64,000 nt of DNA, taken from sequence record PQ642267. One strand, given 5' to 3'. The translations under genes were made by a program, and so were the position numbers. Numbering within the stretch: position 1 is the first letter of the stretch; every line of letters begins with the position of its first letter. The notes under the pieces were generated by a model. It was not told the origin of the DNA. It made no database searches and saw nothing but the letters and a program-made list of their open reading frames with translations. Source of the DNA: Shigella phage SH-2. Of this stretch, positions 26,755 through 28,350 are shown piece by piece.

Positions 26755-26830
26755 TGGTCGAGGCAGTAGGGATCGAACCTACGACCTAGGACTTAGAAGG
26801 TCCTTGCTCTTCCTTCTGAGCTATGCCCCG
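26755..26830 (-). tRNA. tRNA-Arg (anticodon TCT), CCA encoded
   Basis: Manual fold: acceptor CGGGGCA/TGCCTCG, D-arm GCTC/GAGC, anticodon loop CTTCTAA, T-arm GTAGG-TTCGATC-CCTAC, 76 nt. Confidence 0.8.
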
Positions 26831-26833
26831 TAA

Positions 26834-27499
26834 TTAAAATTTCATTTTTCGACCTTTAAACCATCCTTCTGGAATTGGGTCAGTTTTCTTAATACGTTTA
26901 GAAACTTTTTCATCTAATGAATGAATCCACATCATACCAAATTGGGAATTCTTTTCTCCTTTCTGATGATTATTTTTAGCGTGAATTTCTTTCATTTTAT
27001 TAATAGTTTCAGGAGTATGATGCTTATTTAAAAATCTGCTATTATTTAAAAATTTTTCCTTGTATTCAGGAGTTGACCACAAACGTTTAAATACATTTGA
27101 ACCAATTTTACGATATTTTTCTTGAAGTAAAATATCATTTTCAAAACGTGATTTAAACGATTTAGCTCCTTTTAAACTAGCATCTTTCTTCTGGTTTAGC
27201 ATCCCAGGAATATTTATATGGTCCCATCCACCTTCACCACCAAGTTTTAAATTATACACATCTGGTCTATTTAAAAACTCTTCTGTGACAATATTTTTCT
27301 CAGCTTCAAGCATAGATTCTTTATCATCAAAATACTCTAATATTTCTTTAGAAAAATTTTCTATACCATACTTGTCTTGGGCTCTTTTTAATAATTTACC
27401 AGAACCCATATATCCATCATCTAAATTTTCGGTAGAATGCACACCAATATAAATTTTATTATTAATTTTATTTGTTATTTTATAAAGATAAAAATGCAT
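26834..27499 (-). CDS. segB: GIY-YIG homing endonuclease (SegB-like)
   Basis: YLYKI...IYIGVHST...YMGSG motif; ATG at 27497-27499 gives 221 aa; alternative ATG at 27541. Confidence 0.7.
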   Translation of the reverse strand: MHFYLYKITNKINNKIYIGVHSTENLDDGYMGSGKLLKRAQDKYGIENFSKEILEYFDDKESMLEAEKNIVTEEFLNRPDVYNLKLGGEGGWDHINIPGMLNQKKDASLKGAKSFKSRFENDILLQEKYRKIGSNVFKRLWSTPEYKEKFLNNSRFLNKHHTPETINKMKEIHAKNNHQKGEKNSQFGMMWIHSLDEKVSKRIKKTDPIPEGWFKGRKMKF

Positions 27500-27545
27500 A
27501 TCAGTCCCTAATAAAGAACTGAGCGTCTCACGACGAGTCATAAAT

Positions 27546-27619
27546 TGGTGGGGAGTGATGGAGTCGAACTCACATCATCAGATTGGAAGTCTGAGGTAAT
27601 GCCATTATACGATATCCGC
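27546..27619 (-). tRNA. tRNA-Gly (anticodon TCC)-like; 3' T-stem/acceptor do not pair (possible pseudo-tRNA)
   Basis: 5' two-thirds fold normally (GCGGATA acceptor, anticodon loop CTTCCAA); 3' CCATCACTCCCCACCA does not complement acceptor or T-stem. Confidence 0.45.
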
Positions 27620-27624
27620 AAATT

Positions 27625-27711
27625 TGGTGCGAGAAGTGGGACTCGAACCCACAAGGAAATCATTCCGCAGCATTTTAAGTGCTGTGCCTTTACCAATTTG
27701 ACCATTCTCGC
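27625..27711 (-). tRNA. tRNA-Leu (anticodon TAA), class II long variable arm, CCA encoded
   Basis: Acceptor GCGAGAA/TTCTCGC, anticodon loop CTTAAAA, T-arm GTGGG-TTCGAGT-CCCAC, 87 nt. Confidence 0.8.
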
Positions 27712-27717
27712 TCTATA

Positions 27718-28350
27718 TTATTTATTACGTGAAAAAGATTGTTCTATCAATTCTGGACACTTTCGTTCTATCCATTTTCTAGCTTTTTGTGGGCTTATAC
27801 CTATTATTTTAGCAGCTTTACTAACCCATCCAAATTTAGAATAATCGATTTTAACTAATTCTTCGTAAATTTCATCAGTTAAAATGTTTTCATTAATATT
27901 TACCAGTAAATGATATAATTTATTATCATTAGCAATTTTAATGAATCTTTTATAGTTTCCGCCTTTACTTAAACCTAATGAAGTAATTGCAGATGATATA
28001 GTAGCAGAATTTAATAATGCGTTTAAAATTTCTTCATCACTAACATTATAACGCTTTTTATTATTTTTAATATTTTTACCAGCAAAAGTATCAGTTTGCG
28101 AATGGCAATTTGGACATAATAATCTTAAATTTGATTTAAGATGATTTTTGTTATTTCCGTCAATATGGTCTAATTGCAGAACAATATGCTTATTTTGCCA
28201 TTTTGAAATTTTACAAATTGCACACTCATATGGAAAAATATTTTCTTTTATTATTTTATCTTTCAGCTTTCCTGTACTAAAATTTGGATGTTTTCCTTCA
28301 AAAATTTCAGCTAATTTAGTATCCATAATATAATTCCCAATTATTAACAA
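27718..28350 (-). CDS. HNH homing endonuclease (mob-like) with C-terminal helix-turn-helix
   Basis: CAICK...H-x-DHIDGNNKN...CPNCH (HNH zinc motif); abuts the 5' end of tRNA-Leu. Confidence 0.65.
   Translation of the reverse strand: MLIIGNYIMDTKLAEIFEGKHPNFSTGKLKDKIIKENIFPYECAICKISKWQNKHIVLQLDHIDGNNKNHLKSNLRLLCPNCHSQTDTFAGKNIKNNKKRYNVSDEEILNALLNSATISSAITSLGLSKGGNYKRFIKIANDNKLYHLLVNINENILTDEIYEELVKIDYSKFGWVSKAAKIIGISPQKARKWIERKCPELIEQSFSRNK

Follow-up and report, generated by a model that had tools for sequence, protein, structure and literature searches.

SegB, a homing endonuclease of T4-like phages, is known from T4 and T6 to cleave the 3' ends of transfer RNA (tRNA) genes and to home (PMC2330249, PMC13096335). 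Its site spans 27 base pairs (bp) with a conserved core, GGTTCRANTCC, which is the T-loop motif, in the pattern GGTTCRANTCC ... CCAR, and it cuts just after CCAR at tRNA gene 3' ends; nine such sites, including tRNA-Gly and tRNA-Tyr of T2L, were cut in vitro, and the tRNA genes of the phage that encodes SegB can be cut as well (PMC2330249). In T6, where segB follows tRNA-Tyr, the SegB nuclease together with UvsX/UvsY brings about a microhomology-bounded tandem amplification of tRNA-Tyr and segB (PMC13096335). The T4 tRNA region is dispensable (PMC2330249), and phage tRNAs counter tRNA-cutting host defences, with T6 tRNA-Tyr countering Septu (PMC13096335). Here we describe the tRNA locus of Shigella phage SH-2 (PQ642267) within a stretch of 64,000 nucleotides (nt), referred to as the window, and in particular a tRNA-like element that lies directly in front of segB.

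We read this element as a non-functional hybrid of two tRNA genes, left behind when a BP32/T6-type cluster lost 430 bp in one deletion. On the alignments set out below we give this reading a probability of roughly 85%. The features that carry it are the following.

27546..27619, minus strand: Gly/Tyr hybrid pseudo-tRNA, the putative deletion scar (sub-threshold in Rfam; no ARAGORN call; aligned to BP32, SH-1 and ESh24).
27570-27619, minus strand: Gly-derived part of the hybrid, tRNA positions 1-50 (alignments).
27564..27569, minus strand: deletion junction, a 6-nt microhomology GTTCGA common to the T-loops of tRNA-Gly and tRNA-Tyr (read from the sequences).
27546-27563, minus strand: Tyr-derived part of the hybrid, its last 18 nt, with CCA at the end (alignments).
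27500..27545, minus strand: segB 5' leader, starting directly after the CCA of the hybrid (identical leader in relatives).
26834..27499, minus strand: segB, encoding a GIY-YIG homing endonuclease of 221 amino acids (aa) (orthology to T4 SegB, Pfam, PHROG).

The Gly-like element (27549-27619, minus strand) scores 27.8 bits against the Rfam tRNA model, under the gathering score of 29, and the intact tRNA-Gly genes of nine relatives score 63.3-65.8 bits. In the cmscan alignment, three of the seven acceptor pairs and three of the five T-stem pairs are flagged as non-standard; none is flagged outside these two stems, and the D arm, the anticodon arm and the anticodon are intact. Folded alone, the hybrid has a minimum-energy fold without an acceptor stem, and its stability does not exceed that of its shuffles (z -0.52); intact tRNA-Gly reaches z -2.27 in the same test. 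The hybrid forms neither acceptor stem nor T stem. A first-pass annotation, made from the letters of the window, had described a tRNA-Gly with a normal 5' two-thirds and 3' 18 nt unable to fold, and the aberrant part is indeed exactly 27546-27563.

What lies in that part is not a worn tRNA-Gly. Set side by side with tRNA-Gly, the hybrid matches as far as ...GATGATGTGAGTTCGA, then reads CTCCATCACTCCCCACCA and then ATTTATGACTCGTCGTGAG... Positions 1-50 are identical to tRNA-Gly(UCC) of ESh24 and SH-1, and the first 56 nt are unchanged relative to these genes. Positions 51-74 and the 46-nt leader behind them equal the tRNA-Tyr 3' end and segB leader of related phages, and the 3' part corresponds base for base to tRNA-Tyr of SH-1, ESh24 and Ec_O157kw, down to the T variant CCATC. 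There are nine differences between the hybrid and tRNA-Gly, all within the last 18 nt, and together they convert it to the tRNA-Tyr 3' end (18/18). The decay that the first-pass annotation saw in the tRNA-Gly thus gives way to a clean Gly/Tyr hybrid, in which the last 18 nt and the leader are those of tRNA-Tyr. The Tyr-derived part differs from BP32 at a single position, CCATC versus CCACC; a mutation after the deletion was considered for this C/T difference and rejected, since the T form is the common tRNA-Tyr allele.

Gradual mutational decay of a dispensable tRNA-Gly would fit a sub-threshold tRNA score combined with a normal 5' two-thirds, but we assign it a negligible chance. All 9/9 differences sit in the last 18 nt, where they produce tRNA-Tyr exactly, and the sequence then continues into the leader found after tRNA-Tyr in BP32. 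Because the differences are so confined and yield tRNA-Tyr exactly, stepwise decay is ruled out.

BP32 is the closest relative across the locus, with the gene order HNH, Leu, Gly, Pro, Ser, Thr, Ile/Met(CAU), Tyr, segB, Arg. The hexamer GTTCGA is all that tRNA-Gly and tRNA-Tyr have in common at the join. When the 430 bp between the two GTTCGA copies were removed from BP32 in silico, the product matched window positions 26750-27715 over 966 nt with six mismatches and no gaps (99.4%), so that one deletion suffices for the loss of five tRNAs. The breakpoints lie in GTTCGA. The product keeps positions 1-50 of tRNA-Gly and the last 18 nt of tRNA-Tyr, and the removed segment held the 3' end of Gly, then Pro, Ser, Thr and Ile/Met(CAU), and most of Tyr. 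As in a microhomology-mediated deletion scar, the flanks map to two parental sites and an identical short sequence stands at the join.

The same junction was sought in 50,697 phage records with a 53-nt probe able to seed only across the join. Three records contain it, those of OES_C-1, OES_C-2 and OES_C-3; a scan of IMG/VR and JGI metagenome contigs yielded no exact junction. The OES_C phages carry tRNA-Gln and no HNH gene, are ~4% divergent from the window downstream of 26698 and have 84% identity to it upstream. The OES_C-2 locus has three tRNAs and the hybrid, and when nine related loci were scanned with Rfam at a permissive E-value, the sole extra sub-threshold tRNA was the OES_C-2 copy of the hybrid. 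In the OES_C-2 record, a longer segB open reading frame (ORF) of 708 nt, which begins at an upstream in-frame ATG 4 nt past the hybrid, is labelled hypothetical protein, and neither the hybrid nor any tRNA is annotated. Among SegB relatives in IMG/VR, found at four loci, one belongs to a T4-type cluster with an intact array and the others are distant or tRNA-free.

These records also bear on whether a tRNA array was collapsed during assembly or sequencing. Short repeats do occur in tRNA arrays, and the neighbouring accessions of SH-1 and OES_C-1/2/3 suggest a putative common source. Such an artefact nevertheless appears very improbable: the junction repeat, at 6 nt, is well under any assembler's word size, and the identical junction stands in three other records whose flanks differ, being diverged and carrying tRNA-Gln where the window has HNH.

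A second hybrid was recognized by gap alignment in two relatives.

CM8 (locus L005), about 3595-3687: Tyr/His hybrid pseudo-tRNA, unannotated (gap alignment).
IME339 (locus L014), about 1553-1645: Tyr/His hybrid pseudo-tRNA, unannotated (gap alignment).

Between tRNA-Met and tRNA-Arg of CM8 lies a gap of 104 nt, made up of the 5' part of tRNA-Tyr joined in GGTTCGACTCC to the 3' end of tRNA-His; Asn, the spacer and most of His were removed by the join. IME339 has the same junction with two differences from the CM8 copy, and its cluster contains no endonuclease gene. The CM8 copy was missed by ARAGORN and Rfam, and the IME339 copy by ARAGORN and the annotation. As this hybrid is a second, independent example, T-loop-to-T-loop deletion recurs in these arrays. 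For annotation, it means that such hybrids escape tRNA finders and stay unannotated in GenBank. Laboratory deletions within the T4 tRNA region were reportedly isolated by Wilson, Kim and Abelson in the 1970s; searches of the literature, both on these early T4 mutants and on pseudo-tRNAs or tRNA hybrids among Tequatrovirus phages, turned up nothing relevant.

The phage retains two working tRNAs, Leu(UAA) and Arg(UCU).

27625..27711, minus strand: tRNA-Leu(TAA), intact (ARAGORN; Rfam tRNA, RF00005, 59.3 bits).
26755..26830, minus strand: tRNA-Arg(TCT), intact (ARAGORN; Rfam tRNA, RF00005, 66.1 bits).

The region is that of a T4-like phage (Tequatrovirus), and a 2.4-kb query around the locus matched 780 phage records, mostly of Escherichia and Shigella phages. 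The minus strand is the reading direction of the tRNA locus, the same as in T4. ARAGORN, run over the whole window, calls tRNA-Arg(tct) and tRNA-Leu(taa) only, both on the minus strand, and Rfam agrees that these two alone are canonical, as the first-pass annotation had stated; its doubt about the Gly-like element is likewise borne out, ARAGORN making no call of a canonical tRNA-Gly. Related phages carry more tRNAs at this locus: T4 8, BP32 8, JEP6 7, PD112 7, CM8 6, ESh24 9, Ec_O157kw 8, SH-1 11, Pu-Krd-SF4 9, PST 9 and IME339 8. Given these 6-11 tRNAs in relatives, the set of two is atypical for the group, and the reduction that had been noticed is no general trait of it. The cluster had also been described as bracketed by two endonuclease genes. 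Both an HNH gene and segB are present, but segB is an internal gene of the cluster, with the Gly-like element on one side and tRNA-Arg on the other. Weak Rfam matches to Plastid-ycf2, sX4, YrlA and snoU54 were set aside as antisense-tRNA or chance matches far under their thresholds.

The GIY-YIG ORF encodes SegB itself, beyond being SegB-like, because its product is identical to T4 SegB at 215 of 221 residues (97%) without gaps. The GIY-YIG domain reaches 26.6 bits against Pfam PF01541 (cut-off 22.6), and the protein matches the homing endonuclease family phrog_314 (1.7e-50). Its KIYIG segment includes Y17 and G19, both of which are catalytically essential in T6 SegB (PMC13096335). The distance of 47 nt from the element to the segB start, given in the first-pass annotation, holds with the ATG at 27499 (MHFYLYK...), from which the 221 aa of T4 SegB are obtained. 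The mechanical ORF list starts segB 14 codons further upstream, at an in-frame ATG at 27541, which lies 4 nt past the hybrid's CCA.

segB is located between the hybrid and tRNA-Arg and is absent from the clusters of SH-1 and IME339; endonuclease-free relatives have tRNA-Asn, or Asn and His, at the segB site of this lineage. BP32 has the same leader behind its tRNA-Tyr, and CM8, ESh24 and Ec_O157kw have it behind tRNA-Gly; at every locus examined, segB and segB-like genes start directly after a tRNA 3' CCA.

This arrangement might hint that the Gly/Tyr hybrid is retained for a function, either as a tRNA-like processing signal that frees the 5' end of the segB mRNA or as a SegB-resistant site next to segB, and the hybrid does have A for G at the first base of the SegB core. 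We consider this highly unlikely. The element has no stable structure (z -0.52), it is rare among phage records (3/50,697), and the two differences between the IME339 and CM8 copies of the Tyr/His hybrid are what unconstrained sequence might show.

A second segB-like allele stands right after tRNA-Gly, with tRNA-Pro absent, in CM8 (L005, 2722-3330), ESh24 (L006, 2674-3324) and Ec_O157kw (L007, 2722-3330). Compared with window positions 26834-27545, it has the same 46-nt leader and the same N-terminal ~96 residues, and its C-terminal, presumed DNA-binding half is unrelated. From these alignments, the allele seems to have arisen by a domain swap that went along with a new insertion site. At both segB positions the cassette begins right after the tRNA CCA, the published SegB cut point.

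Two segB positions would also permit a different origin of the hybrid, namely unequal recombination between a phage with segB after tRNA-Gly (CM8/ESh24 type) and a phage with segB after tRNA-Tyr (BP32 type). The two would pair along the 46-nt leader plus ~290 nt coding for the N terminus, with resolution of the exchange in the T-loop, where the similarity ends. The leader and the first ~96 codons are indeed near-identical at both positions and provide ~330 nt of ectopic homology adjoining the junction, and both tRNA 3' ends have GTTCGA...CCAATTTA. The D-loop variant AATGGC in the Gly part of the window occurs in ESh24 and Ec_O157kw, unlike BP32; the Gly C variant is not discriminating, because SH-1, PD112 and IME339 have it too. 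We nonetheless judge this route unlikely. A crossover within the 330-nt homology would keep tRNA-Gly intact, and tRNA-Gly is broken; the T-loop can be reached only by pairing over 24 nt with nine mismatches; and the N-terminal variants of the window segB (AAG versus AAA; GATGAT versus GACGAT) follow BP32.

We therefore return to a deletion within a BP32/T6-type cluster. Microhomology-mediated recombination or break repair between the two T-loops would have made it. The junction hexamer lies inside the SegB core GGTTCRANTCC, from which the hybrid departs at one base. A break by SegB, repaired via the T-loop microhomology, would yield exactly the Gly/Tyr product. A SegB-induced break is thus a plausible but unproven trigger.

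The tRNA-Leu side of the locus carries the second endonuclease gene, and both genes fall within a stretch that is foreign to SH-1.

27718..28326, minus strand: HNH endonuclease gene, 202 aa, at the former tRNA-Gln site (phrog_14736, motif, BP32 junctions).
28331..28339, minus strand: tRNA-Gln stub of 9 nt, TGGGAATTA, upstream of the HNH start codon (window, SH-1, T4, OES_C-2 and BP32 side by side).
26298..28399, no strand: tract of ~2.1 kb foreign relative to SH-1, a probable recombination or co-conversion tract (mismatch maps).

The HNH protein matches the HNH endonucleases of phrog_14736 over its full length (2.5e-123), and the motif CAIC...DHIDGN...N...CPNCH is visible in its translation; the Pfam HNH score of 17.2 bits is under the cut-off of 21.4. 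Six nt separate the end of the ORF from the 5' end of tRNA-Leu; T4, SH-1 and OES_C-2 have tRNA-Gln exactly at this place, and the three-way comparison agrees with the first-pass annotation, which had placed the gene there by reference to T4. tRNA-Gln is replaced from nt 10 onward up to the first base of tRNA-Leu, with identical junctions in BP32, and JEP6, PD112, CM8 and Ec_O157kw also have the HNH gene at this position. The HNH insertion into tRNA-Gln is an older event, common to many relatives, and Gln was lost before the deletion. Presence or absence of the gene at the tRNA-Gln site among relatives, with identical junctions, would fit a homing endonuclease.

The 64-kb window is collinear with Shigella phage SH-1 (PQ642266) at ~99.3%, except for two indel regions, including the tRNA locus. 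In SH-1, this locus has 11 tRNAs and no endonuclease gene. According to the mismatch maps, the window equals SH-1 at 100% over 24687-26297 and 28400-29410, on either side of the foreign tract. Within the tract, 26698-27711 (Leu, hybrid, leader, segB and Arg) is 100% identical to OES_C-2 over 1,014 nt, and the HNH part is ~99% identical to BP32, PD112 and Ec_O157kw. A donor-like endonuclease block therefore stands inside the flanks of an endonuclease-free genome, as expected of a homing or co-conversion tract. The cassette was probably imported, because the window is otherwise SH-1-like, and on these comparisons an endonuclease-bearing, already deleted allele probably entered an SH-1-like genome by recombination or homing. 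Such a deleted allele, linked to segB, would have replaced the 11-tRNA cluster in one step.

Several points weigh against this account. The microhomology is just 6 nt. The deletion is accounted for equally well if T-loops recombined or slipped spontaneously, and the sequence is silent on what caused the break. A resident SegB is not required, because IME339 has a T-loop hybrid without an endonuclease gene in its cluster; SegB may have acted there in trans during co-infection, or the scar may be inherited. The direction of transfer, into an SH-1-like genome as opposed to SH-1 gaining a full cluster, is taken from homing biology, and the number of transfer events is likewise deduced. The exact donor arrangement, an HNH gene together with the hybrid, is absent from the database records, and two or more exchanges may therefore have been necessary.

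The first-pass annotation attributed the small tRNA set to erosion by endonuclease insertion and co-conversion. This stands in so far as the HNH gene replaced tRNA-Gln and the tract looks converted; it does not extend to the five tRNAs lost by one deletion. Nor does a loss of this kind need a resident endonuclease, as the Tyr/His hybrid in the endonuclease-free cluster of IME339 shows.

It is conceivable, although we lean towards doubt, that SegB, through its targeting of T-loops, both expands and contracts tRNA arrays, that the hybrids are scars of contraction and that homing spreads the contracted allele. If this were true, an SH-1-like genome would have gone from 11 to 2 tRNAs, and a selfish endonuclease would erode the tRNAs that protect against tRNA-cleaving host defences. 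A natural T4-like phage reduced from ~8-11 tRNAs to two is in any case a ready comparison strain and is predicted to be sensitive to tRNA-cutting defences, and its hybrid is a base-precise record of array shrinkage.

Other features adjoin the locus. An ORF of 116 aa (26388-26738, minus strand; phrog_3355, 1e-54) of unknown function lies between tRNA-Arg and an rnaD-like RNA. It is present in BP32, JEP6, OES_C-2, CM8, ESh24 and IME339, and SH-1 matches the stretch too; it is absent from PD112, Ec_O157kw, T4, Pu-Krd-SF4 and PST. Sequences homologous to two stable RNAs of T4, rnaC (species 1) and rnaD (species 2), follow at about 26127-26390 (minus strand) with 93.6% identity to T4, a stretch in which Rfam gave no match. 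The rnaC-like part contains a perfect SegB core motif, GGTTCGAATCC, at 26139-26149, and the rnaC/rnaD stretch of BP32 and ESh24 draws anomalous ARAGORN calls of 94-97 nt, labelled 'tRNA-Lys' and 'tRNA-Phe(aaa)'. In the rnaD-like region, 26298-26343 is a hypervariable patch with 5-12 mismatches per 100 nt in every relative compared, and the neighbouring bins are near-identical. Elsewhere in the 64 kb, the window differs structurally from SH-1 at one place, 18638-19385, where it has 748 nt and SH-1 464 nt; the setting is one of small ORFs, with an adjoining ORF at 19418-19834 and no obvious endonuclease gene.

All components of the locus are of known kinds, namely SegB, an HNH gene, a microhomology deletion and mosaic exchange among T4-like phages, and there is no new system. 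The general picture is unchanged, because this kind of event is well understood. T4 (NC_000866) has the order Gln, Leu, Gly, Pro, Ser, Thr, Ile, segB, Arg, rnaD, rnaC, and the window presents the same locus in the same orientation. SegB (97%) and tRNA-Leu are common to both, as are nt 1-56 of tRNA-Gly, and the rnaD/rnaC regions are 93.6% identical. Relative to T4, the window has HNH in the place of Gln, lacks Pro, Ser, Thr and Ile, and has no intact Gly. The segB leader of the window also differs from that of T4; the parental type had segB after tRNA-Tyr, which T4 lacks. The 116-aa ORF separates Arg from rnaD in the window, whereas rnaD directly follows Arg in T4.

Clusters of the BP32/T6/Pu-Krd-SF4 type (..., Ile/Met, Tyr, segB, Arg) have kept 8-9 tRNAs, and the window has the T-loop deletion. 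Apart from the 430 bp, BP32 and the window are 99.4% identical from Leu to Arg, with HNH at the tRNA-Gln position and identical junctions. The amplification described in T6 (PMC13096335) involves the same gene, the same type of locus and short-microhomology junctions, and the SegB motif (RAWTSGAAC / GGTTCRANTCC) covers the window junction. T6 represents a segmental amplification, whereas the window has a deletion between two T-loops in a natural isolate. In its likeness to SegB homing and co-conversion in T4 x T2L crosses (PMC2330249), the window resembles a segB-free genome of T2L/SH-1 type with its tRNA region replaced; by contrast with those crosses, the incoming allele would already have been deleted, so that tRNAs were removed and not swapped. 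The Tyr/His hybrid of CM8 and IME339 is likewise a T-loop-to-T-loop join (in GGTTCGACTCC) with the intervening genes gone. It differs from the window hybrid in the pair of tRNAs joined, in its microhomology of 11 nt and, in IME339, in an endonuclease-free cluster.

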